From: an uncultured Pseudomonadales bacterium
GTDB taxonomy: Bacteria; Pseudomonadota; Gammaproteobacteria; Pseudomonadales; Cellvibrionaceae
Reading direction: 5' to 3'
NCBI GenBank assembly: GCA_947487765.1
Contig: CANKXO010000007.1
Location: 22,180 to 86,179, forward strand
DNA: 64,000 bases
Part shown: piece after piece, positions 27,566 through 44,917 of the stretch
Layout of the letters: every line of letters begins with the position of its first letter
Position numbering within the stretch: position 1 is the stretch's first letter
The notes under the pieces: generated by a model
Database searches by the model: none
What the model was told of the DNA's origin: nothing
Seen by the model: only the letters and a program-made list of their open reading frames with translations
Program-made: the position numbers and the translations under genes

Positions 27566-27574
27566 CCGGTTAAT

Positions 27575-27648: not shown

Positions 27649-27688
27649 AATAGTATGTTGAGTAGGGTTCTAAAAATATTTAATTTTT

Positions 27689-27763: not shown

Positions 27764-27769
27764 AATTTT

Positions 27770-27914: not shown

Positions 27915-27926
27915 ATTAATTTAAAC

Positions 27927-28000
27927 GCGGTGTTGACCGAATGGTTAGGTACCTGCCTTCCAAGCAGAGGAAATGGGTTCGATTCCCATACACCGCTCCA
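27927..28000 (+). tRNA. tRNA-Gly (anticodon UCC)
   Basis: Acceptor GCGGTGT/ACACCGC, anticodon stem CTGC/GCAG with loop CTTCCAA, T arm ATGGG-TTCGATT-CCCAT, then T-CCA. Confidence 0.85.
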
Positions 28001-28008
28001 AAATTTAA

Positions 28009-28082
28009 TGAAGGTTGGCTTAGTGGCTGAGCACCGGACTTTTAATCCGGCTAGATGGGTTCGATCCCCATACCTTCAACCA
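28009..28082 (+). tRNA. tRNA-Lys (anticodon UUU)
   Basis: Acceptor TGAAGGT/ACCTTCA, D stem GCTT/GAGC, anticodon arm CCGGA-CTTTTAA-TCCGG, T arm ATGGG-TTCGATC-CCCAT, then A-CCA. Confidence 0.88.
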
Positions 28083-28115
28083 ATTACAATAAAACAACTA
28101 AAAGGAGATCGTATT

Positions 28116-29312
28116 ATGGCGATTAAAAAAGTATTGGCGCCGCATAAAGATCAGCGGTTGCCTGTAAAAATTTGGACGGATGATATTGATTACAGCACGC
28201 AGGCTCAGTTGAGTCGTGTAGCGAACTTACCATTCGTTTATAAGCATGTAGCAGCGATGCCTGATGTACATCTCGGAAAAGGCGCCACTGTTGGTTCAGT
28301 GATTGCAACCGATAAAGCTATTATCCCTGCAGCTGTGGGTGTGGATATTGGATGTGGAATGAATGCAGTGAGATTATCTATTAAAGCAAAAGATTTGCCT
28401 GATAGCCTAAAATTGATTCGAAACGGAATTGAATCAGTTGTACCTTTAGGTCCCGGAGGTCAACATCGTGACCCCAAAATTGCTGGTGGTCATGATATAT
28501 CAATGCGTCTATGTACTATTTTTGAAAAACACCCGAAGTTAAGTAAGCGCGTTAAAGTGAATGGGTTTGCGAAACAATTAGGAACGCTGGGCTCAGGAAA
28601 TCATTTCATTGAATTATGTTTAGATGAAAATGATGACGTGTGGATTATGTTGCATTCAGGGAGTCGTGGAGTTGGCAATAAAATCGGTATGTACTTTATC
28701 GAAATTGCTAAACGAGAAATGGAAAAATGGATGATTCACTTACCTGATAAAGACTTGGCTTATCTATCTGAAGGGTCAGAATATTATGATGACTATATTG
28801 AAGCAGTTTCTTGGGGGCAAGATTATGCGGCATTGAATCGCACGCATATGATGAATGCAGTAATGCTAGAACTACGTAAGTATTTACCTGCGTTTACAAT
28901 CACACAAGAGGCTATCAATTGCCACCATAATTATGTTGAAAAGGAAAATCATTACGGCAAAAACGTATGGGTAACGCGTAAAGGCGCAATCCGTGCGAGA
29001 AAGGATGATCTTGGTATTATTCCCGGGTCCATGGGTGATAAAAGTTTTATTGTTCGTGGTAAAGGTGAATCTGAATCATTTTGTTCTTGTTCCCATGGTG
29101 CGGGTCGACGATTGAGTCGTACTGCAGCTGCAAAAACTTTTTCCGTTGCTGATCTCGTATCAGCTACTGAAGGAATAGAATGTCGTAAAGACAGGGGTGT
29201 CATTGATGAAATTCCAATGGCATATAAGCCTATCGATAGCGTGATGGATAACCAAACTGATCTAGTGGATATAGTTCATACACTTCGACAAGTCGTCAAT
29301 GTAAAAGGCTAG
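28116..29312 (+). CDS. rtcB: RNA-splicing ligase RtcB (copy 1)
   Basis: The start was moved to the ATG at 28116, which has the RBS AAGGAG 8 nt upstream. The track ORF start at 27885 runs through three tRNA genes. RtcB motifs are present: GVDIGCGMN, GSGNHFIE, HSGSRGVGN, CHHNY, PGSMGDKS, SCSHGAGR. Confidence 0.93.
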   Translation: MAIKKVLAPHKDQRLPVKIWTDDIDYSTQAQLSRVANLPFVYKHVAAMPDVHLGKGATVGSVIATDKAIIPAAVGVDIGCGMNAVRLSIKAKDLPDSLKLIRNGIESVVPLGPGGQHRDPKIAGGHDISMRLCTIFEKHPKLSKRVKVNGFAKQLGTLGSGNHFIELCLDENDDVWIMLHSGSRGVGNKIGMYFIEIAKREMEKWMIHLPDKDLAYLSEGSEYYDDYIEAVSWGQDYAALNRTHMMNAVMLELRKYLPAFTITQEAINCHHNYVEKENHYGKNVWVTRKGAIRARKDDLGIIPGSMGDKSFIVRGKGESESFCSCSHGAGRRLSRTAAAKTFSVADLVSATEGIECRKDRGVIDEIPMAYKPIDSVMDNQTDLVDIVHTLRQVVNVKG

Positions 29313-29358
29313 AAAGGACTTAGCCTTTTCTTTCACCTCTTTCCTCATTTTTAATTTA

Positions 29359-29432
29359 GCCCAATTGGCATAGTGGTCGTGCAGCTGCTTTGTAAGCAGC
29401 AGAGACAGGTTCAATTCCTGTATTGGGCTCCA
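29359..29432 (+). tRNA. tRNA-Thr (anticodon UGU)
   Basis: Acceptor GCCCAAT/ATTGGGC, D stem GCAT/GTGC, anticodon arm GCTGC-TTTGTAA-GCAGC, T arm ACAGG-TTCAATT-CCTGT, then T-CCA. Confidence 0.85.
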
Positions 29433-29441
29433 GTTTACATC

Positions 29442-29593
29442 GCCTGATTAGTTCAATTGGACTTAGAGCATCCGCCTACGACAATTTTGCAGGAGCAAAA
29501 ATTGGGCGTCTATAGAGGCGATCGTGAAACGATAATGTGCAGGACGCATATTACAAACGGGAAGATGCGGGTTCGAATCCTATTCAGGTGCCA
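29442..29593 (+). tRNA. tRNA-Arg(ACG)-like gene with the four-hairpin insert in the anticodon loop
   Basis: The 5' half is canonical: GCCTGAT-TA-GTTC-AATTGGACTTA-GAGC-A-TCCGC-CTACGA. The insert follows from about 29482. The 3' part GCGGG-TTCGAAT-CCTAT-TCAGGTG-CCA has a weak T stem, and no clean 3' anticodon-stem strand was found. Confidence 0.45.
29484..29551 (+). repeat. Four-hairpin insert module, copy 2 (inside the anticodon loop of the 29442 gene)
   Basis: P1 ATTTT-GCAGGAGC-AAAAT; P2 CGTCT-ATAG-AGGCG; P3 ATCG-TGAAA-CGAT; P4 ATGTGC-AGGAC-GCATAT. Collinear with 26819-26888. Confidence 0.75.
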
Positions 29594-29601
29594 AATTTAT
29601 T

Positions 29602-29678
29602 ACTCTCGTAGCTTAATTGGATAGAGCGTCTGTCTTCGAAACAGAACGGTGTTGGTTTGATTCCAACCGAGAGTGCCA
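29602..29678 (+). tRNA. tRNA-Arg (anticodon UCG)
   Basis: Acceptor ACTCTCG/CGAGAGT, D stem GCTT/GAGC, anticodon arm TCTGT-CTTCGAA-ACAGA, T arm GTTGG-TTTGATT-CCAAC (T at position 56), then G-CCA. Confidence 0.82.
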
Positions 29679-29917
29679 ATAATTATTATTAATAAACCCG
29701 AGAATCTTTAGGTGTGGCCGTGGCAGATTGATAAATTTACCGGGAGTAAATTTAGACGCGGGAGAGAAGCGACGGCGCCCGTAGGGGTTGTAACATGGAT
29801 GTTACAAACCAATGTGCGCTTAACTTTGGCTTAAGTGCCCTTGGTTTTTGGAAAGGGGAGTTCAGGTCGCATCGGTCACCCCTAAAGGTTTTTACTAATA
29901 GAAAAGGAGGTCAAGCA

Positions 29918-30211
29918 ATGAGACTTGCTATAACGCGATCAGGTTTTTATAACGCTGATCTTTATTGCGCTGATACTCGTACAGCTAAAAGAGTGTTGCG
30001 TGAAAAAAATATTTCCATATTGGCTATCGACTATTATCTAGTTGGCCAGGGAAATGGTTGCGATATTATTGATTGGGCTAAAAGAAATGCAGTTTTGCCT
30101 AATTTTATCGTTGTTATTGAACGTAATCGCAACAAACGAGCCTTATTATCGAATACATTACGAAATATAGGTTATCGCTCTGGTGATGATACTACCTTTA
30201 TAAGGCATTAA
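29918..30211 (+). CDS. Small receiver-fold-like protein, possibly a degenerate 'cyclic-phosphate processing receiver' (cREC)-type domain
   Basis: The start was moved to the ATG at 29918, which has a strong RBS AAGGAGG. The upstream part of track ORF 29795.. overlaps a structured RNA region. The 97-aa protein contains ...ILAIDYYLVGQGNGCDIIDWAK...PNFIVVIERNRNKRA... This resembles from memory the hhhDhDLG...G.dhh.Wh...hhhHS.N layout of small REC-like proteins that accompany RtcB, but the catalytic-type residues are replaced. Confidence 0.45.
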   Translation: MRLAITRSGFYNADLYCADTRTAKRVLREKNISILAIDYYLVGQGNGCDIIDWAKRNAVLPNFIVVIERNRNKRALLSNTLRNIGYRSGDDTTFIRH

Positions 30212-30250
30212 ATTTAGTTAAAGCGACCACTATGATTAATTGAGAATAGG

Positions 30251-30814
30251 ATGATGAATATTCAAATTTTGCAGCTATCGAAGTCAGGTCACCCAATGTC
30301 TTGGGTGAACCGTGAAGAAGCCGCAACACTGTATGCAAAAAATAGGGTGTTATGGGAGCTGGGTGACGAAGTTATTCCAATTGTCGGCGGTATTAATCGC
30401 TTGGGCATTCAAAGTCGCTTCGATATGGCACCAATTATTGCTTGTGATGGTGATGTGAAACAACCTCGTTTACGACCATCGTTAAGTAATCGTATGCTGT
30501 TTCGCCGAGACGATTACCGATGCTTGTATTGTGGTGTTCAGTTTAATCACGACGGATTAACGCGGGACCATATTGTGCCGCGTATTCAAGGTGGTTTAGA
30601 TCGTTGGGAAAATGTGGTTGCTGCTTGTAAACGCTGTAATCACAGTAAGGGTGGTCGAACGCCAGAGCAGGCAGGGATCAAGCTATTGGCCATTCCATTT
30701 GTGCCGAATCCGTTTGAGTTTCTGTTTTTGGCAAATCGACATATTCTGGCTGACCAGATGGATTATCTTGCGACAAGCTTTTCGTCAAAGCGAGACTGGA
30801 AAAAAGTGGCTTAA
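30251..30814 (+). CDS. HNH endonuclease
   Basis: The HNH core is present: CLYCGVQFNHDGLTRDHIVPRIQGGLDRWENVVAACKRCNHSKGG. 187 aa. Two hairpins follow (30806-30826 and 30837-30862). Confidence 0.85.
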   Translation: MMNIQILQLSKSGHPMSWVNREEAATLYAKNRVLWELGDEVIPIVGGINRLGIQSRFDMAPIIACDGDVKQPRLRPSLSNRMLFRRDDYRCLYCGVQFNHDGLTRDHIVPRIQGGLDRWENVVAACKRCNHSKGGRTPEQAGIKLLAIPFVPNPFEFLFLANRHILADQMDYLATSFSSKRDWKKVA

Positions 30815-30991
30815 CTATTAAGCCACCCACATATTTGGAATACAGGTATTAACCTGTATTCCATACCGATGTTTATACGTATGTTGGCGAAACAGCGGCT
30901 CTGGTTCTGAATGCCAGGCTGGCACAGTCATGTTTTATGTCCTGTGTACCGATTCACTAACACGTTAAACAGTATGCTCTGAAAAAGCATA

Positions 30992-31064
30992 GTTTTTGTA
31001 GCTCATAGGGTAGAGCAATCGACTCATAATCGATGGGTAGCAGGTTCGATTCCTGCCTCAAACA
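30992..31064 (+). tRNA. tRNA with CAU anticodon (fourth CAU gene), weak acceptor stem, no encoded CCA
   Basis: D stem GCTC/GAGC, anticodon arm ATCGA-CTCATAA-TCGAT (perfect), T arm GCAGG-TTCGATT-CCTGC. The acceptor GTTTTTG/CTCAAAC pairs at only 5 of 7 positions. The 3' end is A-CAG. Confidence 0.65.
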
Positions 31065-31424
31065 CAGTCAGTTTTAATAAACTGAAGGAAAAGCCGAGAG
31101 GCTGAGGTTCGAATCCTCATTTGGTCTACTAAACCAAATATAAAACAAGAGGCTCATAGCAACGTAATGCTGTTATAGATTATGTTGCGTTGACATTAAT
31201 ACCGTTAATGATGGGTTAAGGTATTGCGTAGTAAATAATAAGTTTACCTCACTATCAACAGCTAAGGATGGTGTCCTAGGGATGGGGATAATCAAGAGTG
31301 ATTAGGTTAGTGTGGAGCAACCGCTGTATTTGTCTACCCATTACATTTAAGTTATTTACCGTACTCATGGCAAATGGGCCTCGCCATTATAGTCATTGGA
31401 AGAAATAAATAAGGGAGAATAATA

Positions 31425-32576
31425 ATGATTCTTTGGAAAACAATCGATATTGCGGAACATGAACGTGTATTACTTTATGTCCGTGATCAATTTAAACAAG
31501 TGCTAGGCCCAGGTCGGCATCGTGTCTCGACCTTGAAGGGAAAAGTTCGCCAGGAAACCTATGATATTACCGAAGTAGTATTCAGGCATCCTAAAGAAAA
31601 ATTTTTGCTGTCACACTACCCAGAAAAACTGGCAATGCACCTTGAGCAGTTTGACTTAAAAGATACTGAAGTGGGCTTGTTATATCGAAATGGCCATTTA
31701 ATGAATGTGTTGGCACCTGGTAGTTTATTTACAGTTTGGAAAGGTGTTGAGGATATTCGTGTTGACGTTATCGATATTAATAACCACTATCAGATAGAAG
31801 AGTCTTTAATTGGCTTATTGGGGCGAGGCATTAAAATTGGTCAAAGCCGAGAAGTCGTTAATGCGATTGCTTATGCAGAGGTAGTTGATGAGCATGTAGG
31901 TTTATTGCTGGTTAACGGTAAGCTAGAAAAGATCTTGCAACCGGGTAGTTACGGCTTCTGGAAATATAACCGTTCAATTGCGGTTAAAATGCTTGATCTT
32001 CGTTTACAAGCAATGGAGGTTAGTGGCCAAGAGATTCTGACCAAAGATCGCGTGAGTTTGCGTATTAACTTAACTGGTAGTTATAAAATTAAAGATCCTC
32101 AAATTGTTGCCTCTAAGGTGAATGATTACGCAGGTTTTATCTATCGTGAGTTGCAATTAAGTTTGCGAGAAATTGTAGGCACACAATCATTAGATGGATT
32201 GTTAGAAGATAAAGATGCTTTAAATTCTGTAATTACTCAGAGTACACGAGAAAAATTAGCGGAATACGGTATTCAGTTAATGAGTGTCGGGGTTAAAGAT
32301 ATTATTTTACCTGGTGAAATGAAGCAGATTCTGAATCGAGTAGTAGAGGCGCAAAAAGAGGCTGAAGCTAATTTGATTAAGCGTCGTGAGGAAACTCAGG
32401 CAATGCGTTCATTACATAATGCTGCCAAGATGATGGAAAACAACCCTGTGTTGTTACGTTTAAAGGAATTAGAAGCATTAGAAAGAGTGACTGGGAAAAT
32501 CGATAAGATTTCTGTCTATGGTGGCCTTGATAGTGTTCTTAATGACTTGGTAAAACTGGCGCCGGTCAAAACCTAA
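31425..32576 (+). CDS. SPFH/Band-7 (slipin-like) domain protein
   Basis: 383 aa. The C-terminal half is SPFH-like (...VSLRINLTGSYKIKDPQIVA...GIQLMSVGVKDIILPGEMKQILNRVVEAQKEAEANLIKRREE...). No clear N-terminal TM helix was seen. Confidence 0.8.
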   Translation: MILWKTIDIAEHERVLLYVRDQFKQVLGPGRHRVSTLKGKVRQETYDITEVVFRHPKEKFLLSHYPEKLAMHLEQFDLKDTEVGLLYRNGHLMNVLAPGSLFTVWKGVEDIRVDVIDINNHYQIEESLIGLLGRGIKIGQSREVVNAIAYAEVVDEHVGLLLVNGKLEKILQPGSYGFWKYNRSIAVKMLDLRLQAMEVSGQEILTKDRVSLRINLTGSYKIKDPQIVASKVNDYAGFIYRELQLSLREIVGTQSLDGLLEDKDALNSVITQSTREKLAEYGIQLMSVGVKDIILPGEMKQILNRVVEAQKEAEANLIKRREETQAMRSLHNAAKMMENNPVLLRLKELEALERVTGKIDKISVYGGLDSVLNDLVKLAPVKT

Positions 32577-32609
32577 AGAAAGCTGCTAGGTTATTTAGCA
32601 GCTTTCTTT
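32575..32609. terminator. Bidirectional terminator hairpin between the convergent SPFH and RT genes
   Basis: The 14-bp stem AAAGAAAGCTGCTA (32575-32588)/TAGCAGCTTTCTTT (32596-32609) is perfect, with loop GGTTATT. Confidence 0.7.
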
Positions 32610-32749
32610 GATGAGAAGTTTACCTTTTAAATGACTGTTTCATGCAATGATGAAACAATAGCAATATCGAACATCATTTGTTATTAATGAGTTAATTTTT
32701 TTATAATTGAATGCTAGGGTTGAAGTTCATAAGATGTTTTTATTGAGCG

Positions 32750-34531
32750 CTAGCGAAAAGATACAATCAAAAATATAAGTACAGCAATTGCCGCAAAAAT
32801 CATTACGCGAGCGAAGGGTTGCATAGAATCTGTATTAGATGCATCCGATAGCCATGGTGATTGAGATTCTTTCTGTTGTTGTGACTTAGTTTCTTCCTTT
32901 TTTGTTTGTTTTTTTGCGGTCGCTATTTGTTTAAGCTCTTCTGTAGTATTCTCTTTAACAGGTGGTGCTGGTGGCTCAGCTTGCCACCAGTTTTCGCGTG
33001 GTGCTTCACCGGCAGCGGCCTTTAAGCGTAAAAGTTTATTATTTAATTTGCCAATGCGACTTGGATTAACTTGATAACTGTATTTTTGTTTTAGTTGTAC
33101 TATTTGCTTTTGTAAAGGAATGCCCTTGCTAGGGTTAACCATTGCGACAAAGTTGGCGTAACCTTCTATGGAGCACAATAAATTGCTACTGCTATTGTGA
33201 GAACGATGAGCCCAGTGCTTACCCTCTAGCCCGCTTTTGTCAATTTGATGTAGTAAGGCTCTGAAGCGCTTTAAGGTCTTGCGATCAACGCTAAGGTTAT
33301 TATTCACTACCACGCCGGTCACTTCTTGTTTTTTATGCTTGCGCATAATGCGTGTTTTTTCGGGGTGAACAATAAAACCTTCATCCTTAATAATACTATG
33401 ACAACGCCACAATAGTTTTTTTACAATGCTGTCGTCAATATTCTGTGGATTAATATCATCGCCCTTGTTGGAGCTTGCCGAAAAAGTAACATCGTCAGCA
33501 TATCGCGTATAAGTAAAGCCTAATTTTTTAGCCATCCCTTGTAAGCGAGCATCCAATTTTCTACAGATGATATTGCTAATATTAGGGCTAGTTGGCGCTC
33601 CTTGCGGTAAAAAGCGCTCTCCGTTACTAACAAACCAAGACTGACTATCTAGTTCAACCTCCTGTGTATTCGCTTCGGTGCAAAGTAAGGCTAGTACTGT
33701 TGCAATGTGTTCACTGTAACCTAGAGCTTTAAACATCCCCTTAACTCTTGGATAGCTAATTGTTGGAAAGAAGTTTTTAAGGTCGAGGTTAATAACAATA
33801 TCTTTGCCTACATGAGGCGCAGCATTGGTTACGATAGAGCGCGTGCGTACAAAGCCATGAGCGGCATCATGTAATGCCAGCGGCTCTAAAATATTGGATA
33901 AAACCCAATACTGGGCAAGTTTCAACCGTGGCATAGGGGCAGATATTAGGCGAGTTCCACCGGTTTTCTTGGTCATTTGGAAGCGTTGATAATGACTAAT
34001 CGTGCAGACATCTTTTTGGTAGACTAAAAAACGTAGCTCATTAACGGTAATGCCCATGGCTCTGGCCAACATTTGGCTGTCGTGCAGTAGTGGTAACTGT
34101 TGGGCTTGGAGTTTGTCTTCATCGCTGTTAACTTTTGATAGCCCTATCGATAAACCTTCCCCTACGAAGGTAATAAATTTCTTTTGGATGTCGTACCAAT
34201 TCTTTGCTCGTTGGTATCGTGTTTCATTGCGTTCTTTACGCTTTTCTTCTCTACGAATAAGTGCTTCTTTTTTACGCTGTTTGTGTAACTCCTTTAGTGC
34301 TTGCTCTGGGTCTTGATACAATTGCTGTTGCTTTCCTAATTCACGCAGTTGCTTTTGTAACTGCCCGCGCTTTTCAATAAAGGTTTCTGTTAGTGTTGGC
34401 TGTTCACTATTTTTTGGCCAAAACCCAAGACGTTTCATCTCTGCTAAAATATAAACTTCTTTACCACCTGTTTCGCGTACGCGCTGGTAGAGTTCTTGGC
34501 GGCTTAATTTTTTAGTGCTTTCGTCAGACAT
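32750..34531 (-). CDS. Reverse transcriptase, retron/Abi-DRT-like, with N-terminal extension and C-terminal TM anchor
   Basis: RT motifs are present: NAAPH (NAxxH), INLDLKNFFPTI, LPQGAPTSP, YTRYADDVTFS, and QEVTGVVVNN (VTG). There is a ~190-aa charged N-terminal extension, a K/E/Q-rich tail, and a terminal hydrophobic helix MIFAAIAVLIFLIVSF. The RBS GGGAGA lies upstream. Confidence 0.9.
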   Translation of the reverse strand: MSDESTKKLSRQELYQRVRETGGKEVYILAEMKRLGFWPKNSEQPTLTETFIEKRGQLQKQLRELGKQQQLYQDPEQALKELHKQRKKEALIRREEKRKERNETRYQRAKNWYDIQKKFITFVGEGLSIGLSKVNSDEDKLQAQQLPLLHDSQMLARAMGITVNELRFLVYQKDVCTISHYQRFQMTKKTGGTRLISAPMPRLKLAQYWVLSNILEPLALHDAAHGFVRTRSIVTNAAPHVGKDIVINLDLKNFFPTISYPRVKGMFKALGYSEHIATVLALLCTEANTQEVELDSQSWFVSNGERFLPQGAPTSPNISNIICRKLDARLQGMAKKLGFTYTRYADDVTFSASSNKGDDINPQNIDDSIVKKLLWRCHSIIKDEGFIVHPEKTRIMRKHKKQEVTGVVVNNNLSVDRKTLKRFRALLHQIDKSGLEGKHWAHRSHNSSSNLLCSIEGYANFVAMVNPSKGIPLQKQIVQLKQKYSYQVNPSRIGKLNNKLLRLKAAAGEAPRENWWQAEPPAPPVKENTTEELKQIATAKKQTKKEETKSQQQKESQSPWLSDASNTDSMQPFARVMIFAAIAVLIFLIVSFR

Positions 34532-34689
34532 CTGCCTGTCTCCCTAATATAAATAAGGATAAATGTTGAGTGTTAAAAAAATGGATAATGATAGTTGTTA
34601 CAAGAACAAATAAAGAAGAGAAGTGCGCAAGATAAAAGGGTGCCAGCGTGCTCAATGTTTCCTTCGTAGAGCTCTTAGTACTGGATTGA

Positions 34690-34785
34690 TCAACTCGACG
34701 CGGCACGCCCCTACTATCGCTCATTGACTTCATGGAAGTCATACCGCAATAGCGATAGTAGGGGCTGTGCCGCCCTATGAAGATC
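34690..34785 (-). ncRNA. Highly structured non-coding element immediately upstream of the RT (candidate RT template or msr-msd-like RNA)
   Basis: A 22-bp interrupted inverted repeat joins GCGGCACGCCCCTACTATCGCT (34700-34721) to AGCGATAGTAGGGGCTGTGCCGC (34751-34773). It encloses a second hairpin TGACTTC-ATG-GAAGTCA (34725-34741). It lies in the 400-nt gap between the SWIM gene and the RT. Strand and ends are not determined. Confidence 0.45.
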
Positions 34786-34931
34786 AGGCCAGTGACGCGT
34801 GTGTAGTCTATAAACCAGAACGGCGATGCACCGCTCAAATTGCAAGGTAGATAAGTCACGCTGACACCTGTGCTAGTATAGCAGTGTTGTTAGGTTTTAA
34901 AAGAGCGCTATTAAAATTCTTCATGATCTCT

Positions 34932-36572
34932 TTAACCGTTTGCTAAGGAATATTGTTTTCTGATCGCTAATATATGTTCGCATGGCCCCATGCGCAGTAA
35001 ATTCGTTCGATAAAAATAACAGTCGCAGCTAGCCTCTTTTAAACGTTGATCGCCGTCAATTTTAATCTCAGTGTTCAAATGGTGTCCGTCATCAATGACT
35101 GTTCCTTGAATTTGAGCACCTCTTTCATTTTCTAGCTTATGATGAATTGTCACCAAGTTGGCGGCCACAAATCGAGCAGACTTTTCATCGCGCTCATTAG
35201 CAAAACGCAATGAGTCCATCGGTAAAGGTTGTTGGCTAAGTTCACGGATACGATAAACACTTCCGGCTAAATCATAAAGCACTTGCCCCTGTTGGCTATA
35301 GGCAGCCAATGCAGATTTCACTACTGACTCATCTAAATGCAGTCGTCGTGCCAGTGAGTCACTGGATTCTTGCCATGTCTCTGATAGTGCTTGGTAAACA
35401 CGTTTAAGTGTTACTTCGTCAACATCACCTCTAGGCGCTAATAGATCAAAGTTACCCATTCGTGACCAATCATTTGCTGACCAGCCCGACAAACCTAAGG
35501 TAAATGTCATATCGCCTAAATCGGCAACGTAAAAACTAGGTAAGCCATTACCTAATAGATGTACCGTAAATTTTTTGGCGATAGGGATTAAACGCTCCAA
35601 TATATGCAGGCGACGGCGCCCCCATATACGAATTGATCTAGCGTCATTTCCTGTATAAATGCTTCTGGCTAATATTAATTCTGTGCCCCATGGCTCTAAG
35701 ATAATTTTAATAGGCTCATCTGATGCCAGTTCAAATCGTATTGCCCGAGGGCCTACGCGCTCTCTTTTACGCCGCAACATATAACAAATATTGTGAATAT
35801 CCATTGGGTGCAATGTTAATGTGGTCATGGGTAAGGTCATAGCTGAGCTTACCTGTAAAAAACCACGCACCCAGCTTTCAGGAAGATCAATTTTCTTTTC
35901 GTCAAATTGTTCCTCATGGCTGGTTTGCATACTGAAACCATCGGGGTCAATTGCCAATGCTGTTTGGCGATACTCTCTTATTTTTTGAAATTCGTTGTAT
36001 AAACCTTCCGAGTAATCAATATTTGTGGTGCCGTAAGAAGTATCGGTTATATTATCAAATACGTCATAGCTACAGCTAAGTTTTCCGTAACTTGATTCAT
36101 CTTCAGAAAAACATTCAAAAAAAACTTCGTCGGGATGGACGGTAATTACTGGGTCAAGTACATACCAAGCATCCATATCGGTTTTATAAAGATGTTTGAA
36201 ATATTTGTTCTGAGCTGTATAAAAAGGCCCCATTAATGCTTGGCTTTGCTTGCTAAGTTCAGATAGTTCTTTGCGCACAAGCTCAATTTCGCCTTCCACC
36301 TGTGACTTGCGACCAATAAATTCTGCCAATAGCCGCTCTTCTTCTTCAGCTAGCCAGCGCTCGTATTCGCTGCGATCTTTTGGCTGAAAGCGCATATCAG
36401 AAATCACAACATTGTGTAGTGCCGATATCGCCTCACGAAAAGCTATTTTCTGCTTAAGCTGTCCTACAAAATAAGTAGGTAGGCGCAAACTGTCAGGCAC
36501 AAAAGATACATCTGTACTCGCTGCATTGCTCGCAACATGGCTCTGCCCATGATATCGATAACGAAATTCCAT
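34932..36572 (-). CDS. SWIM zinc-finger domain protein
   Basis: 546 aa. A C-terminal SWIM CxC...CxH signature is present (ASCDCYFYRTNLLRMGPCEHILAIR). It lies directly downstream of the WGR protein on the same strand. Confidence 0.8.
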   Translation of the reverse strand: MEFRYRYHGQSHVASNAASTDVSFVPDSLRLPTYFVGQLKQKIAFREAISALHNVVISDMRFQPKDRSEYERWLAEEEERLLAEFIGRKSQVEGEIELVRKELSELSKQSQALMGPFYTAQNKYFKHLYKTDMDAWYVLDPVITVHPDEVFFECFSEDESSYGKLSCSYDVFDNITDTSYGTTNIDYSEGLYNEFQKIREYRQTALAIDPDGFSMQTSHEEQFDEKKIDLPESWVRGFLQVSSAMTLPMTTLTLHPMDIHNICYMLRRKRERVGPRAIRFELASDEPIKIILEPWGTELILARSIYTGNDARSIRIWGRRRLHILERLIPIAKKFTVHLLGNGLPSFYVADLGDMTFTLGLSGWSANDWSRMGNFDLLAPRGDVDEVTLKRVYQALSETWQESSDSLARRLHLDESVVKSALAAYSQQGQVLYDLAGSVYRIRELSQQPLPMDSLRFANERDEKSARFVAANLVTIHHKLENERGAQIQGTVIDDGHHLNTEIKIDGDQRLKEASCDCYFYRTNLLRMGPCEHILAIRKQYSLANG

Positions 36573-36643
36573 ATTTTTGCCTGAGAAATTTTTCTGAAAA
36601 TTATGAATCTAATGCGTTTTTGTATAATTTTTATATAGCGTTT

Positions 36644-39600
36644 TTAAACACCCAGCGATGCAGGTTGTTTAATGGGTACCTTTTTGGCTGTTAAGGGTGA
36701 TGCTATATCTGGATACAATGATTGTAATTTAAGCATAGCTTTTATCAAAGCGGCTTTATCTTTATGTACCATAGTTAACGAAATTCGTTCCAATAAAGGC
36801 ATTACCATAGTGGCAACACTTATATCTTTTTCTGCTTCTCTTAATAAAAACAGTAGAATCCTATCTTTACAAACGCGACCCTTATTAATTTGTGATAACG
36901 CTGTTGTAAAATAAGCTTGTAATGAAAGTATATGGCTAGGAATACCCGCCGCGTATTCTTCTAAAAAACTGCTGACAAAAAGCTGTACATTATTTGACGG
37001 ATGCTGGCTTAACTTAAGCAAGTATTCTGGGCCATACTCAGCTTTAAAAAAAGATTGTAGTATTTCGCGTCCAAAGCTTTGTACGTCATCTCTGATGCTG
37101 TCGCAAATAAAAATAACAATTTCAGGGCTCCAATCTTCTTGGCTGTATTGTTGTCGAAAAAAATCAAAGCCAAAGGTTCTTGCATCGTCCCAGTTGCTAT
37201 TTAGAATTCGAAGAGCATCACGACTGTATTGTTTAATTTCATCTACATTTTTCTCGTAAGCCTGAAATGCAAACTGCCTGACAGATACATCGCTATGCTG
37301 GCCTAATATTGCCCATTGTTTGACTGAAAATATATCTGCATTACGTTCAGTTAAGGTTATGGCGCCCACTCGTTGAGCACAGATAGATTGTGCCTGTAAT
37401 AAGCGCCATAGCATATCATTGTCTAGTTTCGTTAAATGTGATTGTGCCAATGAAGTAAAAAAGGCAATTAATTCTTCATGTTGCCCAGGCTGCTCTTCAG
37501 ACTTAAATGTCAGCGCTAATAATGTATTTTCAATCTGCTCGGATCCCTGTTGAGAGTTGGTCATTAGGCGGGAAAAAATAGAAAGTAGGGAGGCGCGCTC
37601 TTGAGTATCGCCCTTGCAATACAAGCCGACTAATAAGTCTAATTGTTTGATTAAGTCTTTATCGGCTTGTTTGCCTAGTAATGCAGCACCTATCCCTCTA
37701 ACTTCGGCTGAGGATGAATCATGAATTGCCTGTAATAAGCTGTCGGGAATATCTCCATAAGATATTTTGTGTCCAAGCAATAATTTTGCACCTAATATTT
37801 TTCTGGGTACTTTCTCGTCATGAATTAAACGTTGCAAACTAGTAAGAGGGAAGTGTTTAATTGCATCATTTAGGTTCTCAAGTGCAAAATCGGCCAAATA
37901 CTCTGCATGCTTTTCGCTTAAGTTGCTGTTCTCTAAAAAGATAGAATCAACTATAGCTTGCAATAGTTTCTCAGCATTTCTACCAGAAATCTTTTGCTGG
38001 CAAACAGCCGTTTTAATGTCACTTTGTACATCACTATGAAGAATCAATAGTAGTGATGTTAATAGTGAAATATCATCATTAATTTTGAACCTTAGTAAAG
38101 ATTGCTTACCTAATACTCTAGCCTCAGTCAGCGAGCTACTTAGTAGAGCGATTAATAATTCACTACTTAAATCGTCTTGTTTAATGCGTTCGCGAACAAT
38201 TGCTAGTGCAAATTCACAAGTACTCGCATAGTTGCTGTTCAGTAAAAGAGCTAAATCTACAGGGCTGATTTTCTGGCAAAAACTCGGTTGATTTTCTAAT
38301 ATCCGACGAGCGAAAGGATGAACCAGCTCGCATCGACTTGTTTTTAATAAGCGTAGTGCATGGCTAGGCTTTTGATCCCAAAGTTCAGCAAAGCATTCGG
38401 TACGAGATCCATTTATCAAGGAAGTACCGTCGGTATTCGACTCATCACTTTTTATCCAGACGCGGCCACTAGGTGCAAGTTGATACCCTGGATGATGTTC
38501 GAAGAGGATATGATTTAAGCTTAAGAAGCTGGCAAAAGGGCCATATTCATTGCTGGATATCAACTGGCGTTGCCAATTGTCGCCACTATTATCCCAGCGA
38601 TAAACCTCTGATGTTCGAGGCTTGCTACCATGCTCATCATTAATCGCAAGCAATGATTCTGTTGCCATATCAACATAACGGAGATCACCGGCCTGTCCTA
38701 TACGCCTGAGTACTCGCCAGCTACGACGGCGAAAGTAATCTCGTGTACGATGCGAGAAGGTCAATTTTGCATTGGCCTTTTTCAGTTCTTTAGATGGTTT
38801 AATACTGCCTTCACCGGGAAGCCATGCCCAATCCCAATCATTACGAAAAAATGCGGGTGCTGTTTCTATACGCTGCGCTAATAAGCCAAATACAGACCCG
38901 TCAAGACGTAGCTCGGATGCTTTATAAATTGATCTAATGCCCCGAAAATATCCTGGGGTTAGGGGAATAATAGCCAGTTGACTTAATAATGCTTGATGCA
39001 ATATGGGGTAAGCTAGCGATAGCTGATAACAAAGTACCAATAGCTGATTAGTATTGTTAACGTTGTCACTAGCCCCATGACTGAGCAACGCGCCAAGTTG
39101 CTGATGAGCAGTGCTACTATTTCCTTCCATAACAGCAGATTTAAACTGTGCAGGAAAGTGCTGCCAATGGCTGCCTAACAAGGCTTTGCGCGATGTTTGG
39201 TCGCTGATTAATAGTTGCGATTCAAAGGCTATATGACAAACTTGTGCTTGTTTGTGTTGCCTCAAGGTTTCTAAAACCGCCTTGTGTTGCGTGGCAACCA
39301 TCCGCCCCAAGGCCCAAGCAATAGAGTAATCCTCTAACCAATGGCCTTTCTTAATATAGGGCACAATTGCATTGGCAATAGGTTCACAATCTCGGTGCCC
39401 TAATTCCCCGAGTCGCCATATCATGCGGCTGCGAGATTTAGTCTCTTTTTCATTGGGTAAATGATTGAGTATCTGTTCAATTAGTTTAAAAGGAAAGTCA
39501 TCGGAGGCAAGATTGCTAGAAGGGACGCCTGCAAGTGTAGGCGAGGTAGTAGTAGGGGACTGTTTTGCTTGTTCTCTATCCCAATAGCCTTTATTGACTT

Positions 39601-39820
39601 TGGATACAACAACACTATCAAATAGCTTCTCTGCTTTGCTAAGCTCAACAGCTTCAGGGGTTTTAGTGCCTTCTCTTAATTGATTGCCGCGACGCCCGTA
39701 TCGAAAATTAACGAGATAACGTTCATCTTTTCGGCTTGCTAACTCACATAAATCAACTTCATAAACTTTGTCGGAATTGCCTTCCTGATACACCAATCGA
39801 GATTGCTTGATTAGTCGCAT
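36644..39820 (-). CDS. WGR-domain protein with long helical (HEAT/ARM-like) repeat region
   Basis: 1058 aa. An N-terminal WGR domain is present (LVYQEGNSDKVYEVDL...YLVNFRYGRRGNQLREGTK...AEKLFDSVVVSKVNKGYW). The remainder is leucine-rich and alpha-helical in character. Confidence 0.8.
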   Translation of the reverse strand: MRLIKQSRLVYQEGNSDKVYEVDLCELASRKDERYLVNFRYGRRGNQLREGTKTPEAVELSKAEKLFDSVVVSKVNKGYWDREQAKQSPTTTSPTLAGVPSSNLASDDFPFKLIEQILNHLPNEKETKSRSRMIWRLGELGHRDCEPIANAIVPYIKKGHWLEDYSIAWALGRMVATQHKAVLETLRQHKQAQVCHIAFESQLLISDQTSRKALLGSHWQHFPAQFKSAVMEGNSSTAHQQLGALLSHGASDNVNNTNQLLVLCYQLSLAYPILHQALLSQLAIIPLTPGYFRGIRSIYKASELRLDGSVFGLLAQRIETAPAFFRNDWDWAWLPGEGSIKPSKELKKANAKLTFSHRTRDYFRRRSWRVLRRIGQAGDLRYVDMATESLLAINDEHGSKPRTSEVYRWDNSGDNWQRQLISSNEYGPFASFLSLNHILFEHHPGYQLAPSGRVWIKSDESNTDGTSLINGSRTECFAELWDQKPSHALRLLKTSRCELVHPFARRILENQPSFCQKISPVDLALLLNSNYASTCEFALAIVRERIKQDDLSSELLIALLSSSLTEARVLGKQSLLRFKINDDISLLTSLLLILHSDVQSDIKTAVCQQKISGRNAEKLLQAIVDSIFLENSNLSEKHAEYLADFALENLNDAIKHFPLTSLQRLIHDEKVPRKILGAKLLLGHKISYGDIPDSLLQAIHDSSSAEVRGIGAALLGKQADKDLIKQLDLLVGLYCKGDTQERASLLSIFSRLMTNSQQGSEQIENTLLALTFKSEEQPGQHEELIAFFTSLAQSHLTKLDNDMLWRLLQAQSICAQRVGAITLTERNADIFSVKQWAILGQHSDVSVRQFAFQAYEKNVDEIKQYSRDALRILNSNWDDARTFGFDFFRQQYSQEDWSPEIVIFICDSIRDDVQSFGREILQSFFKAEYGPEYLLKLSQHPSNNVQLFVSSFLEEYAAGIPSHILSLQAYFTTALSQINKGRVCKDRILLFLLREAEKDISVATMVMPLLERISLTMVHKDKAALIKAMLKLQSLYPDIASPLTAKKVPIKQPASLGV

Positions 39821-40200
39821 AGCTTCCTTAAACTCTTTTATTTTTTGATAAACTTATTTTTTTGAGTATAGCATTATCCTAATAATGGACAAGACTACAT
39901 GGCTATATTATATCTAGAGTTTACACTCGCTCTATCGTAAAGACTATGCTTCTATATACTTCATTCACGTTTTATTAGATAGCAATTATAACCTTTACCC
40001 CTTTCCCTGACGTGATTGTAAAGTGTTAATTTCATATTTGGGTTTACGGCGGTGCTATAATTTTGGTTGCTGTGTCAGGAAGTGTCGCGTTATTTTCAAT
40101 TCTAAAGGTTATCTTGATGAATGTGTTACCTAGCCCGATGACAAATATGTAATTACTATATTTTAAACAATTTTTAAATGCTTAACTGGTAGTAAAGTAT

Positions 40201-41460
40201 ATGCAATTAAATAATAAAAAAGTTTACTTAGTTGGCGGAGCTGTCCGTGACGAACTATTGAATCGCCCAGTTTCAGATCGAGACTGGGTGGTGATTGGTG
40301 TGACTCCAGAAATGTTGATTAAGCAAGGCTATCGGCAAATCGGTAGTGACTTTCCTTGCTTTTTGCATCCTGAAACCAAAGATGAATATGCACTGGCACG
40401 TACGGAGAAAAAATCAGGAAGCGGCCATACAGGGTTTGTGTGTGATTTTAGTCCTGAGGTAACTCTCGAAGAAGATTTATCTCGGCGCGACCTCACCATC
40501 AATGCCATTGCTAAAACAGTAGAGGGTGAATATGTTGATCCTTATGGAGGCAGAGAAGATTTAGAGAATCGAATATTGCGCCATGTATCAGATGCATTTG
40601 CTGAAGACCCATTGCGTGTGTTACGCGTTGCTCGTTTTGCCGCTCGCTACGCAGAGTTAGGTTTTACGGTACACCCAAGTACATTAGCCTTAATGGCTCA
40701 GTTAGTCAGTTCTGGTGAACTATCAGAATTAACACCAGAGCGAGTCTGGAAAGAAATGTCTCGTGCATTAACAGAGCCTCGTCCTAGTGAGTTCTTTCGT
40801 GTGCTTCGTGCCTGTGGTGCTTTGTCGGTACTATTACCCGAAGTAGATTGCTTATTCGGTGTTCCTCAGCCACCCCAACATCATCCTGAAATTGATACCG
40901 GCGATCATGTAATGATGGTGGTTGATATCGCTAAAGAGCGCTTTGATTCTATTAATATCACTTGGGCTGCCTTAATGCATGATTTAGGAAAAGGGCTGAC
41001 GCCTGAAGAGGAGTGGCCCAAGCATATCCGTCATGAAATTAAAGGTGTGCCATTAGTTGAGGCTGTTTGCGAGCGTTATAAAGTTCCGCGTGATTTTAAA
41101 ACATTAGCAATGTTAGTTTCTGAGCACCATTTGCGTTGCCATAAATTATTAGAGATGAGACCAAAATCCATTATGCGCTTATTAGAAGCGCTGGATGCTT
41201 TTAGGCGGCCAGAGAGGGTTAAATATTTTGCGCAAGCCTGCGAAGCCGACGCCAGAGGTCGCTTAGGTTTAGAAGATAGAGATTACCCACAATCGTCACT
41301 ATTAATAAAATGCGGTGAAGTGGGGAAGGATATAGATATTAAGCCTTTACTGGATGAAGGCTACCAAGGCTTGAAGCTGGCGGAACAGATTCGCCGTTTA
41401 CGACTAGGGGCGATTAAGAGGTTTATGGCAAATTATCGAAAAGAAATATTAGGGAAATAA
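40201..41460 (+). CDS. cca: Multifunctional CCA-adding tRNA nucleotidyltransferase with HD domain
   Basis: Starts VYLVGGAVRDELLNRPVSDRDWVV. The class-II NTase head is followed by an HD region (HHPEIDTGDHVMMV...HDLGK). 419 aa, like gammaproteobacterial Cca. Confidence 0.92.
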   Translation: MQLNNKKVYLVGGAVRDELLNRPVSDRDWVVIGVTPEMLIKQGYRQIGSDFPCFLHPETKDEYALARTEKKSGSGHTGFVCDFSPEVTLEEDLSRRDLTINAIAKTVEGEYVDPYGGREDLENRILRHVSDAFAEDPLRVLRVARFAARYAELGFTVHPSTLALMAQLVSSGELSELTPERVWKEMSRALTEPRPSEFFRVLRACGALSVLLPEVDCLFGVPQPPQHHPEIDTGDHVMMVVDIAKERFDSINITWAALMHDLGKGLTPEEEWPKHIRHEIKGVPLVEAVCERYKVPRDFKTLAMLVSEHHLRCHKLLEMRPKSIMRLLEALDAFRRPERVKYFAQACEADARGRLGLEDRDYPQSSLLIKCGEVGKDIDIKPLLDEGYQGLKLAEQIRRLRLGAIKRFMANYRKEILGK

Positions 41461-41464
41461 TAAG

Positions 41465-42367
41465 ATGAGCAGTAAAACTCAGCATTTAATTAAACAAGGT
41501 TTACTCAAGTCTCCGCCTAAGTTTTTGGAAACCGGGGTACAGTATGAAGTGGTTATGGGCTCTATTGCCTATGGTGTTGCTGAAGATCACTCTGATATGG
41601 ATATTTATGGTTTTGCCATTCCACCACGAGACTGGGTATTTCCTCACTTAAGAGGAGAAATTTCAGGTTTTGATGAATCTGGCCCTCAATTTGAGCAAGT
41701 GCAGCAACATCATATGTTGGATAAGTCTGCACGTGGAGGTAAAGGCAAGGAGTATGATTTGGTCATCTATTCGATTATTAAATACTTTCGCTTACTGATG
41801 GATAATAACCCTAATATTATTGATTCTTTATTTGTGCCGCGCAATTGTGTGCTTTATAGCACTGCTGTTGGTGAGATGGTCCGCGAAAACCGTCATCTAT
41901 TCTTGCATAAAGGTTGTTGGGCAAAGTTCAAAGGTTATGCTTATTCACAAGTACATAAAATGCGAACAAAGGTTCCAGAAGGTGGCCGTCAAGCGATCAT
42001 TGATGAATATGGTTATGATGTAAAATTTGCCTATCATGTTGTTCGGTTACTGAATGAAGTCGAGCAAATATTAATTGAAAAAGACCTTGATTTGGCACGA
42101 AATAAAGAGCAATTAAAATCGATACGCCGTGGCGAATGGACACAGCAAGCCATTGAAGAATATTTTACTAATAAAGAAAAACAACTTGAGCAAACTTATC
42201 TGGACAGTGCCTTGCCTGCGTTACCGGATAAAGCAGCTATTAAAAAGTTATTGTTGGAATGCTTGGAGCATCATTACGGCTCATTATCTGAATGTATTGT
42301 TCAGGAAGATGAGGCTTTGATCGCTATTCGAGAAATTGAAACGATAGTGCAACGCTTGAAAAAGTAA
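41465..42367 (+). CDS. Pol-beta-superfamily nucleotidyltransferase (RNA-repair-associated 'RlaP'-like family, from memory)
   Basis: The NTase signature GSIAYGVAEDHSDMDIYGF (GS...DxD) is present. 300 aa. It starts 4 nt after the cca stop. Confidence 0.65.
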   Translation: MSSKTQHLIKQGLLKSPPKFLETGVQYEVVMGSIAYGVAEDHSDMDIYGFAIPPRDWVFPHLRGEISGFDESGPQFEQVQQHHMLDKSARGGKGKEYDLVIYSIIKYFRLLMDNNPNIIDSLFVPRNCVLYSTAVGEMVRENRHLFLHKGCWAKFKGYAYSQVHKMRTKVPEGGRQAIIDEYGYDVKFAYHVVRLLNEVEQILIEKDLDLARNKEQLKSIRRGEWTQQAIEEYFTNKEKQLEQTYLDSALPALPDKAAIKKLLLECLEHHYGSLSECIVQEDEALIAIREIETIVQRLKK

Positions 42368-42864
42368 GCCTTTATTTTTTAATTGAACCACTTTGTATTT
42401 GTTAACCTATAAAAATACTCATTAATATAGTTGTAGTTAATTTTTGTAAGGAAATGTTATAAAAATTATGAATAAAGATATTGATATATAATTTTAATAT
42501 GACTATAGTGCGCGCAGTTTTTACAAATCACCTTTAATCAATACTCTACAGGAGGCTCAAGTATGTTGTATCTAAATAATCAAATCGCATTGTTGGGTTT
42601 GTCTGTATCTTGTTCTTATAGCTAACATTTTTGTTAACGCTATAGCTATCTTTCAGATAAATCCTCTTAGCTAAACGTCTTAACTGTACGTTATAGGTAG
42701 TTTTGCGTAATTTTTTAAGCTAATTCTTGTTGGTCAAATTCTATCGACCATACATTTGCATTTTTTTATGCGGTTAGCGATTAATCTGTATCGCCTTTTG
42801 TTTCAACTCGAAAATATTTTTTGAGGGGGCAATGTCGTGCCTAAAAACATGAGTAGAAATTTTA

Positions 42865-44091
42865 ATGGACACTTATATTAAAAAAATTAATACGCTGGTT
42901 GATCGGCAGGCGAGAGTTGTTATCTTTGATGATAATTGGCTTGAAGATTCTGCTGTTGAGCAGTTGAAAAGAACAATGGAATTAGACGGCATGTTGAGAG
43001 GTATCGGTATGCTTGACCTGCACCCAGGTAAGGGGCAACCAATTGGTGCAGCGTTTGTAACGTGTAATGCCATCTATCCTCACCTTGTCGGGAGTGATAT
43101 CGGTTGTGGTATGGGATTATGGGATTTAGATATTCCAGTCCGAAAAGTTAAATTGGATAAATGGGAGAAGCAATTAGTTGGCCTTGATGAATTTTGGGAT
43201 GGATATCCAAATGATCGGTTACAGAAAAAAGATATTGATACAACTGATACTTTTTTATTATCTGAAAACGGTAAGTTAGGAACCATCGGTGGTGGTAATC
43301 ATTTTGCAGAGCTACAGAAAATTGACAGTATTATTGATTCTGTTGCGTTTAAGCAGTCAGGTCTCAATCATCAGTCTGTTAAATTACTAGTGCATAGTGG
43401 TTCGAGAGGTCTGGGCCAAAAAATTCTCAGGCGCTATGTTGATGATTTTGGCTCAAGCGCTATTTCGACAAATGAACAACCTGAACTTGGTCAACATTAT
43501 ATTCAGCAACATAACTACGCTATCAGATGGGCTGAAGTGAATCGTGATGTCATTGCAGACCGGTTCTGTGAACAGCTCAAAGCGCAGCGGAGATTGGTAT
43601 TGGATGTTGCTCACAACAGGGTTGACCCATTGGCTGAGGAATACGCTGAAGCGATGGGGTTATTAACAAAGAGGCTGCCAGGAAATGGCAACAAAAAATA
43701 CTGGATACACCGTAAAGGCGCAAGCCCAACTAATGAAGGGTTGGTCATGATACCGGGGTCTCGTGGTAGCTTGAGCTACCTTGTTAAGCCTCGTTTGTCG
43801 AATATTCATAGTCTTTCTCAAGGTGGTTTTTCATTGGCCCATGGTGCAGGACGTAAATGGAAGCGAAGTGATGTTCGAGGACGATTAGAAAGCCGCTATA
43901 AAGTAAAAGATTTGGAAAAAACAGCCTTGGGTAGTCGAGTTATTTGTAAGCAACGCGACTTACTGTATGAGGAAGCACCTCAGGCTTACAAAAATATAAG
44001 TCATGTAATAAGTGATTTGGTTGGCGCTGGTCTTGTCGATATTGTTGCAACATTTAAACCGTTACTGACTTATAAGACACGGAGGGTATAA
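42865..44091 (+). CDS. rtcB: RNA ligase RtcB, PrfH-associated paralog (copy 2)
   Basis: RtcB motifs are present: GSDIGCGMG, GGGNHFAEL, HSGSRGLG, AHNRV, PGSRGSLSY, LAHGAGRKW. prfH begins 2 nt after its stop. Confidence 0.9.
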   Translation: MDTYIKKINTLVDRQARVVIFDDNWLEDSAVEQLKRTMELDGMLRGIGMLDLHPGKGQPIGAAFVTCNAIYPHLVGSDIGCGMGLWDLDIPVRKVKLDKWEKQLVGLDEFWDGYPNDRLQKKDIDTTDTFLLSENGKLGTIGGGNHFAELQKIDSIIDSVAFKQSGLNHQSVKLLVHSGSRGLGQKILRRYVDDFGSSAISTNEQPELGQHYIQQHNYAIRWAEVNRDVIADRFCEQLKAQRRLVLDVAHNRVDPLAEEYAEAMGLLTKRLPGNGNKKYWIHRKGASPTNEGLVMIPGSRGSLSYLVKPRLSNIHSLSQGGFSLAHGAGRKWKRSDVRGRLESRYKVKDLEKTALGSRVICKQRDLLYEEAPQAYKNISHVISDLVGAGLVDIVATFKPLLTYKTRRV

Positions 44092-44093
44092 AT

Positions 44094-44789: not shown

Positions 44790-44917
44790 TCTATTAAAAA
44801 ACTGGAGTAATGAAATGAATAATCAACAAACCCCGTTGGGCATTTATCGAAATAAGAAGCGAATTTTTACGCCTTCCAAATGGCAGGTTGCTGTAATGAA
44901 CGAAAGAGAATACGAAG

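Follow-up and report, generated by a model that had tools for sequence, protein, structure and literature searches.

A complete type XIII retron occupying a variable slot in a gammaproteobacterial tRNA and RNA-repair island

Does a reverse transcriptase (RT) gene that follows a WGR-domain gene and a SWIM zinc-finger gene, amid tRNA and RNA-repair genes, belong to an undescribed system, and is that system functionally tied to its surroundings? The question is raised by a stretch of 64,000 nucleotides (nt) from an uncultured Pseudomonadales bacterium of the Cellvibrionaceae (contig CANKXO010000007.1, positions 22,180 to 86,179; here, the window), for which a preliminary description had suggested the first and considered the second. 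We found that the three genes are those of an intact type XIII retron, of the family of Mx162, Mx65, Sa163 and Ne144, that the gap between the last two encodes its RNA, and that the retron is cargo in a variable slot of the island, not a working part of it. The locus is a rediscovery of a known class and not a new class of system.

Assignment of the locus to retron type XIII

The three genes were read as open reading frames (ORFs), all co-directional on the minus strand, with 71 nt between the WGR and SWIM genes and a non-coding gap of 400 nt between the SWIM and RT genes. The ORFs, strand and gaps described before were confirmed to the nucleotide:

32750..34531, minus strand: RT gene, 593 amino acids (aa)
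34932..36572, minus strand: SWIM gene, 546 aa
36644..39820, minus strand: WGR-HEAT/ARM gene, 1058 aa

The host has a G+C content of about 41%, and the nearest retron relatives of the window are gammaproteobacterial. Against PADLOC-DB, the best match of the RT was the RT_XIII model (8.8e-188, 623 bits, residues 3-552), the next best being RT_other with 323 bits and the models of other types lying below that. The SWIM protein matched SWIM_XIII at 1.3e-232, and the WGR protein matched WGR_XIII with E=0 and 1030 bits. The matches of all three proteins cover nearly the entire protein and the entire profile. The locus is a type XIII retron, and profile scores place the RT in the type XIII clade (clade 10). 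For the RT, NCBIfam gave only sub-threshold retron models, and for the SWIM protein it gave no match. Two other classes of RT were considered and rejected. A defence-associated (DRT) or unknown-group (UG) RT would not fit a Drt2 score of only 37 bits against a cut-off of 390 in NCBIfam, nor the top PADLOC matches, which are all retron RT models. A group II intron RT/maturase was discarded with a TIGR04416 score of 57 bits against a cut-off of 300 and no intron RNA found by Rfam in positions 28000-42000.

Type XIII contains the first retrons ever discovered. In a 2026 survey it ranks with the retron types that are most abundant and have the widest taxonomic spread. Its architecture was defined by Mestre et al. 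2020 (PMC7736814), from which the PADLOC XIII models derive; members are Retron-Mxa1 (Mx162), Mxa2 (Mx65), Sau1 (Sa163) and Nex2 (Ne144), the type has its own non-coding RNA (ncRNA) structure, and its RT co-evolves with a HEAT protein (PMC7736814). Both PADLOC and DefenseFinder report 'retron type XIII' in genomes, where it is listed as defence by homology only. Since these standard defence-annotation tools already call the module, no new class is opened by it, and the proposal of an undescribed RT system has to be given up. Running the locus through both tools had been suggested as a check: PADLOC calls all three proteins XIII and DefenseFinder lists the type, and the novelty is lost. The earlier reservation that the RT might lie inside a characterised retron type with known partners was correct as to classification and not as to function, which nobody has characterised. 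In agreement with the PADLOC result, the retron signatures that the preliminary description had read in the RT are all in its translation, as NAAPH (the NAxxH motif, N236 to H240), YADD (344-347) and VTG (404-406), so that the enzyme was correctly taken for a retron RT. Residues N236, A237, H240, Y344-D347 and V404-G406 are invariant in 28 RT homologs.

The Pfam RVT_1 domain covers residues 188-408 of the RT (3.7e-24), and the closest solved structure is that of the retron Ec86 RT (7v9u_A, 9e-44, residues 141-430). The N-terminal extension, put before at about 190 aa, measures about 187 aa ahead of RVT_1, or about 130 aa if the Ec86 RT is taken as reference; the first 140 residues or so form a conserved family-specific domain which lies inside the RT_XIII profile. 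At the other end, a low-complexity linker (residues ~490-570) leads to the single transmembrane (TM) helix that had been noticed, a hydrophobic segment with a Kyte-Doolittle value of 2.65 over 19 aa:

32756..32815, minus strand: RT C-terminal hydrophobic helix FARVMIFAAIAVLIFLIVSF, residues 573-592, predicted tail anchor

A comparable hydrophobic tail is present in 97 of the 120 closest RT homologs, although the sequence itself is not conserved. The tails fall into three classes: one or two hydrophobic helices in Proteobacteria, including beta- and alphaproteobacterial members; a low-complexity linker with a terminal WW motif, mostly KKKWWKLF- or KPWWDVV-like, in 33 RTs from Bacteroidota, Myxococcota, Acidobacteriota, Planctomycetota and others; and no tail at all in cyanobacterial and some other RTs. 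A WW motif opens the hydrophobic helix itself in several gammaproteobacterial homologs, which suggests that helix and WW motif share a membrane-targeting role. Compared with the RTs of the myxobacterial loci examined here (about 510-530 aa), which like many others end in a basic-aromatic KKKWWKLF-type motif, the window RT is about 100 aa longer and ends in the TM helix. The membrane tail appears in our comparison as a conserved feature of proteobacterial type XIII RTs; we found no report of it in the searchable papers, and the defining paper is silent on it.

The partnership of the three genes was followed in relatives of the RT. A scan of one genome per species gave 587 confirmed relatives, from which 80 loci (numbered L001-L080) were kept for comparison, and partner genes were located in them by tblastn with the window proteins. 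The SWIM gene adjoins the RT gene in 70 of these 80 loci and both WGR and SWIM genes are present in 63, most exceptions being loci cut by contig ends. Gene order is nearly always WGR-SWIM-gap-RT, and a non-coding gap of about 300-700 nt between SWIM and RT is kept in most loci. The module occurs in Proteobacteria, Bacteroidota, Cyanobacteria, Myxococcota, Planctomycetota, Acidobacteriota, Verrucomicrobiota and one member of the Bacillota. The adjacency of WGR and SWIM genes, for which accident had been considered, is therefore real across loci, and the two proteins are true conserved partners and a defining feature of a known type. In RT clade, partners, gene order and ncRNA family the window agrees with the Mx162 family of type XIII.

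The msr-msd RNA in the SWIM-RT gap

The 400-nt gap encodes a type XIII msr-msd RNA. A structured RNA had rightly been seen beside the RT: the gap folds with a dG of -106.9 kcal/mol (z = -7.66; 0/200 shuffles as good), and its covarying msr-msd structure is enclosed by an a1/a2 inverted repeat. The elements, with the multicopy single-stranded DNA (msDNA) that the RNA would template, are:

34639..34868, minus strand: retron ncRNA (msr-msd), 230 nt from a1 start to a2 end
34857..34868, minus strand: a1 arm GGTGTCAGCGTG, inverted repeat of 12 nt, 92% complementary
34639..34650, minus strand: a2 arm CACGCTGGCACC, pairs with a1
34836-34818 and 34817-34804, minus strand: two msr hairpins, RNAfold helices
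34678..34796, minus strand: msd hairpin, 119 nt, 38+7 pairs, template of the msDNA stem-loop
34707-34721 and 34751-34765: 15-nt perfect repeat inside the msd hairpin
34875..34883, minus strand: putative extended -10 element TGCTATACT, read from the sequence

Between the window and three Vibrionaceae relatives, compensatory changes are found in 17 of 71 predicted pairs. A sequence profile built from these four RNAs gave 60 full-length matches (E-values 1e-79 to 1e-4), which lie in SWIM-RT gaps and are spread over about 50 other loci, and RNAalifold on the resulting alignment of 61 sequences predicted 41 pairs, 34 of them with double changes. In this consensus 91.1% of cells form pairs, against 69.1% in column shuffles (0/500 as high) and 36-48% when the 3' partners are slid; the covariation score is 0.598, against 0.200 for shuffled columns and about 0.1 for slid partners. 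The support extends along the RNA: msr hairpin 1 (helix 2) shows covariation in 5 of its 8 pairs, with 99.4% of cells paired, and in the msd every one of the 15 pairs of helix 5 and of the 5 pairs of helix 6 covaries. A short conserved CCUU/AAGG helix is also present. Conservation of the inverted repeat among RT homologs had been named as a check, and a flanking a1/a2 repeat, with a median of 13 nt, was found in 52 of the 61 homologous RNAs at p<=0.05; the arms fail to align between loci because their sequences differ from locus to locus. A point of difference from Mx162, Mx65, Sa163 and Ne144 is that the repeat of the window is short (12 nt). Five single-stranded motifs, CTTGC, TCACTG, GAGTTGA, CAGTCCT and ACGAAGG, hardly vary across phyla, with Gammaproteobacteria, Cyanobacteria and Myxococcota among them, and the RNAs of five myxobacterial loci (L014, L024, L025, L031 and L059) align with that of the window. 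Rfam, searched on positions 28000-42000, gave no family for the gap RNA and returned tRNAs only.

Two further elements of the RNA may be proposed. Close relatives share a conserved AGCGYGRC motif where a1 ends on its 3' side, and this motif is a candidate site for the branching G. As TGCTATACT ends 7 nt upstream of a1, the predicted transcription start would lie at about the first base of a1; a strict two-hexamer sigma-70 scan did not list TGCTATACT and gave no more matches than in shuffles.

We also observed that in some relatives the type XIII ncRNA is repeated in tandem between SWIM and RT, in two or three copies, as in L019 (at 7363, 7576 and 7871) and L035 (at 2260, 2586 and 2866), and also in L032, L042, L006, L052, L055, L011 and L012. 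The copies differ in their msd stems and a1/a2 arms, and therefore one RT may serve several msDNAs. We found no report of such tandem copies in the searchable papers.

We examined a 111-aa ORF (34524-34859, minus strand) as a possible fourth gene but discarded it: it lies wholly on the ncRNA, has no family match, lacks its start codon in the gammaproteobacterial loci L001-L003, and the alignment with distant RNAs contains single-base indels. In L083 (9601-10011), a gene caller annotated a 136-aa ORF over the retron ncRNA. Both ORFs are likely false, because a near-invariant RNA sequence keeps the frame open.

The partner proteins and a possible mode of action

The SWIM protein keeps 57-72% identity and a length of 540-557 aa across its closest 120 homologs. 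Its parts, in order, are:

N-terminal part: long helices
residues ~140-365: predicted clamp fold, carrying the acidic residues named below
residues ~385-445: winged helix
C516, C518, C531 and H533: SWIM finger, CxCx12CxH (here CDCx12CEH)

The four residues of the finger are invariant, and so are the acidic 'DEDE' residues D140, D148, E153, D186 and E225. The DEDE motif, winged helix and SWIM finger that mark the type XIII partner (cluster 114) are thus all present. Sequence searches said little more: Pfam gave no match at E<=0.01, and PDB sequence searches with the SWIM protein, the SWIM profile and the WGR protein returned nothing useful. An AlphaFold2 model of the SWIM protein was compared with the PDB. 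In this model (predicted local distance difference test, pLDDT, 72 overall and 81-94 for most of residues 250-360; predicted TM-score, pTM, 0.51), Foldseek matched PCNA with E = 9.5e-10, a probability of 1.0 and a TM-score of 0.6-0.74 on the target, and the model shows the two-domain arrangement of processivity (PCNA/beta) clamps. The SWIM protein is thus predicted to have a PCNA-like two-domain clamp fold. Since clamp similarity is absent at the sequence level (the SWIM profile showed none to PCNA in the PDB profile search, nor by hhalign against an approximate human PCNA), the clamp reading rests on the predicted fold. The protein also differs from PCNA, 9-1-1 and the beta clamp in carrying an invariant acidic motif and in joining the clamp region to a coiled coil, winged helix and SWIM finger; a ring that encircles DNA would be conjecture. 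Mestre et al. took this region, because of its DEDE motif, for transposase-like (PMC7736814), and in our literature search no paper linked a clamp fold to retrons.

In the WGR-HEAT protein, Pfam recognises the WGR domain just above its threshold (23.1 against 22 bits, residues 12-85) and a HEAT_2 match stays below the cut-off. The predicted structure (pLDDT 87.5) consists of the WGR domain (1-81), a disordered linker (85-106) and an alpha-solenoid of about 950 residues with a beta-rich insert at ~330-460, and its structure matches are to HEAT solenoids only. Retrons with two separate accessory proteins are also known in type I-A (Ec78, Septu PtuAB) and type IX, whose partners are an ATPase/HNH pair or HEPN nucleases that cut tRNA or rRNA; the partners in the window, in contrast, show no recognisable nuclease fold. 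With Ec86/Eco1 (type II-A) the window shares a homologous RT domain and the same a1/a2-msr-msd layout, and the expected logic, in which RT and msDNA restrain a partner, would by analogy be the same. However, the Ec86 effector is a nucleoside deoxyribosyltransferase-like toxin where type XIII has the WGR and SWIM proteins, the Ec86 RT is short and lacks both the N-terminal domain and the membrane tail, and the Ec86 msd sequence is not conserved across phyla.

From what is known of studied retrons, a promoter immediately before a1 would drive transcription of the ncRNA and RT. Priming would take place at the 2'-OH of a guanosine on the 3' margin of a1 (PMC7736814), and the RT would copy the msd, beginning directly 5' of a2 and passing along the long hairpin. 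This would yield a branched msDNA that stays bound to the RT, and its estimated length of about 120-150 nt is in line with the 144-163 nt implied by the names Ne144, Mx162 and Sa163. The predicted structures suggest that the WGR-HEAT protein may be a scaffold without enzymatic activity that engages a nucleic-acid end through its WGR domain, that the SWIM protein may bind the msDNA duplex through its clamp module, winged helix and zinc finger, and that the C-terminal helix of the RT may tether the particle to the inner membrane. At rest, the RT-msDNA complex would hold the partners in check; a change caused by a phage in the msDNA or in the complex would then lead to growth arrest. By analogy with other retrons, we regard such a phage-sensing role in abortive infection as the most likely one, at an even chance or slightly better.

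A bolder version of this scheme takes the SWIM partner as a genuine PCNA/9-1-1-like clamp subunit on the msDNA hairpin of the retron, with the WGR domain reading the DNA end, the RT tail (transmembrane helix or WW motif) keeping the particle at the membrane and perhaps a preference for tRNA and RNA-repair islands. We consider it rather doubtful. If the clamp reading were true, the retron would make its own 'DNA junction plus clamp' sensor, of a kind undescribed for retrons. Type XIII is widespread and we found no reports on its function or structure; the clamp fold, the scaffold-like WGR-HEAT protein, the membrane tail and the cross-phylum ncRNA motifs are leads for the whole family.

The RNA-repair island and the rival explanations

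The RNA-repair island which had been described around the retron is real, with tRNAs, RtcB, RlaP and PrfH all found. It holds 14 tRNA genes, two RtcB, HNH, SPFH, a CCA-adding-like enzyme, RlaP and PrfH, and its RtcB2-PrfH ribosome-repair pair passes the NCBIfam equivalog cut-offs (TIGR03073, TIGR03072). By ORF and tRNA annotation, and for the slot by blastn against the related island L084, the arrangement is:

26664-31065: tRNA array, 14 genes, interleaved with RtcB
~28.2-29.3 kb: RtcB, followed by a 138-aa ORF
30251-30814: HNH gene, followed by tRNA-Met
31425-32576: SPFH/Band-7 gene
32572..40230, no strand assigned: variable slot in the island, holding the retron here
40201-45874, plus strand: operon of a CCA-adding-like gene (PolyA_pol+HD), RlaP, RtcB2-PrfH and a 318-aa ORF without a family

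Island L084 has the same order as the window, RtcB, tRNAs, HNH, tRNA, SPFH, CCA, RlaP, RtcB2, PrfH and the 318-aa ORF, and the proteins of its CCA-RlaP-RtcB2-PrfH operon are 55-83% identical to those of the window. DNA homology ends at 32571, the end of SPFH, and resumes at 40231 in the CCA-adding-like gene. In L084 the slot (1.78 kb) holds a 559-aa HEAT-repeat ORF (9189-10868) in place of the retron; the match of this ORF to the PADLOC HEAT-ARM_XIII model (E=3.9e-4) is not significant. Cargo seems to be exchanged at this slot. L084 belongs to a sample of 80 metagenomic loci found from the SPFH protein (L084-L163). Of these 80 loci, 56 have tRNA genes, usually just upstream of SPFH, 37 have RtcB, usually just downstream, and 18 have HNH, so that the tRNA-SPFH-RtcB cassette looks conserved; RT, SWIM and WGR genes occur in 0/80. 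Because the closest related island has another gene in the slot and the cassettes lack the RT, we conclude that the retron is cargo in a variable slot. In this sense, the locus illustrates a retron in a variable cargo slot of a conserved tRNA/RNA-repair island. A search for direct repeats of a mobile element in 24-48 kb gave nothing convincing, and a phage origin of the island SPFH gene was discarded, with only two weak matches to a YbbK-like gene.

A functional link between the RT module and the tRNA/RtcB island, for example through synthesis of cDNA from damaged or tRNA-like RNA, had been raised as a possibility, and it is the reading of the surroundings that competes with cargo. What speaks for it is that a type XIII RT lies by tRNAs and an orthologous SPFH gene (37-43% identity) in the window, in a Nostoc locus (L078) and in a Flavobacterium locus (L069); by a rough estimate, three co-occurrences in 84 RT loci exceed chance for a rare cassette. 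Besides, L015 has a convergent RtcB gene directly downstream of its RT, and L020 has an RlaP-like gene on the downstream side. Yet none of the 80 SPFH cassettes contains the module, and L084, the closest island relative, keeps the order but carries a HEAT-repeat ORF where the window has the retron. With three additional relatives (L081-L083), the RT comparison comprises 83 loci besides the window, in which any tRNA gene is nearby in 9 and an SPFH gene in 2; six gammaproteobacterial loci among them (L001-L003, L081-L083) have neither RNA-repair genes nor tRNAs near the retron, the close relatives L081-L083 (L081 from Hahella) sitting among ETF, glycosyltransferase, racemase, deacetylase and comparable genes. 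Moreover, the RT comes with a dedicated template RNA that shows covariation. The co-occurring RTs of L078 (8858-13704) and L069 (6698-11194) are orphans without WGR or SWIM partners or detectable ncRNA, and that of L078 is N-terminally truncated and resembles a remnant. The neighbours of this truncated RT include a TriTu immunity protein and a DUF4011 helicase-REase, a setting that speaks more for co-residence in conflict islands than for a shared mechanism. The link was therefore not borne out as a general rule, and we regard coupling to the island as highly unlikely.

The best joint explanation is that of an intact type XIII retron with a retron-like role, carried as cargo in the island, and we hold it to be reasonably probable. 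Several points weigh against it. The searchable literature contained no experiment on what type XIII retrons do, so that 'defence' is said by analogy only; neither the WGR-HEAT nor the SWIM protein has a recognisable toxin or nuclease fold. Type XIII is reported to correlate with host 16S and to be inherited vertically (PMC7736814), ncRNA sequence conservation across phyla is unusual for retron RNAs, and close relatives lie among the housekeeping genes just named. As to details, the clamp fold comes from a model of moderate confidence (pLDDT 72, pTM 0.51) without sequence similarity to PCNA, and the branching G, msDNA ends and promoter are predicted. Part of this evidence would suit a type XIII retron domesticated to a cellular role, such as a DNA-metabolism or repair particle made of a DNA hairpin, a clamp and a WGR protein. 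Conserved ncRNA motifs, invariant from Gammaproteobacteria to Cyanobacteria and Myxococcota, vertical inheritance and housekeeping neighbours fit such a role better than an arms race; domestication was suggested together with the 16S correlation (PMC7736814), and the high identity and fixed length of the SWIM protein, the predicted clamp and the lack of a toxin-like domain point the same way. Nevertheless, the retron here fills a variable slot of a conflict-type island, the L078 RT lies among defence-like genes, the distribution of the type is patchy and not universal, and every retron type tested to date is reported to be defensive. We see domestication as a serious rival, though the less probable reading. 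That the locus is an inactive remnant which makes msDNA no longer is extremely improbable: its expression is predicted only and it sits in an island with cargo turnover, but the three ORFs are full length against the family profiles, the catalytic and zinc-binding residues are all intact and the ncRNA retains all helices and motifs.

Two minor observations concern the island itself. ARAGORN calls many cassette tRNAs 'tRNA-Stop' or 'tRNA-???' (L088, L091, L151 and many of L084-L163), immediately upstream of SPFH; with such unusual or undetermined anticodons, the cassette may carry atypical or suppressor-like tRNAs. Also, the RtcB ORF of the window (27885-29312, 475 aa) opens with a TTG start in the tRNA array and overlaps tRNA-Gly and tRNA-Lys (27927-28082); the true start is probably further downstream, because the RtcB domain begins at residue 108.

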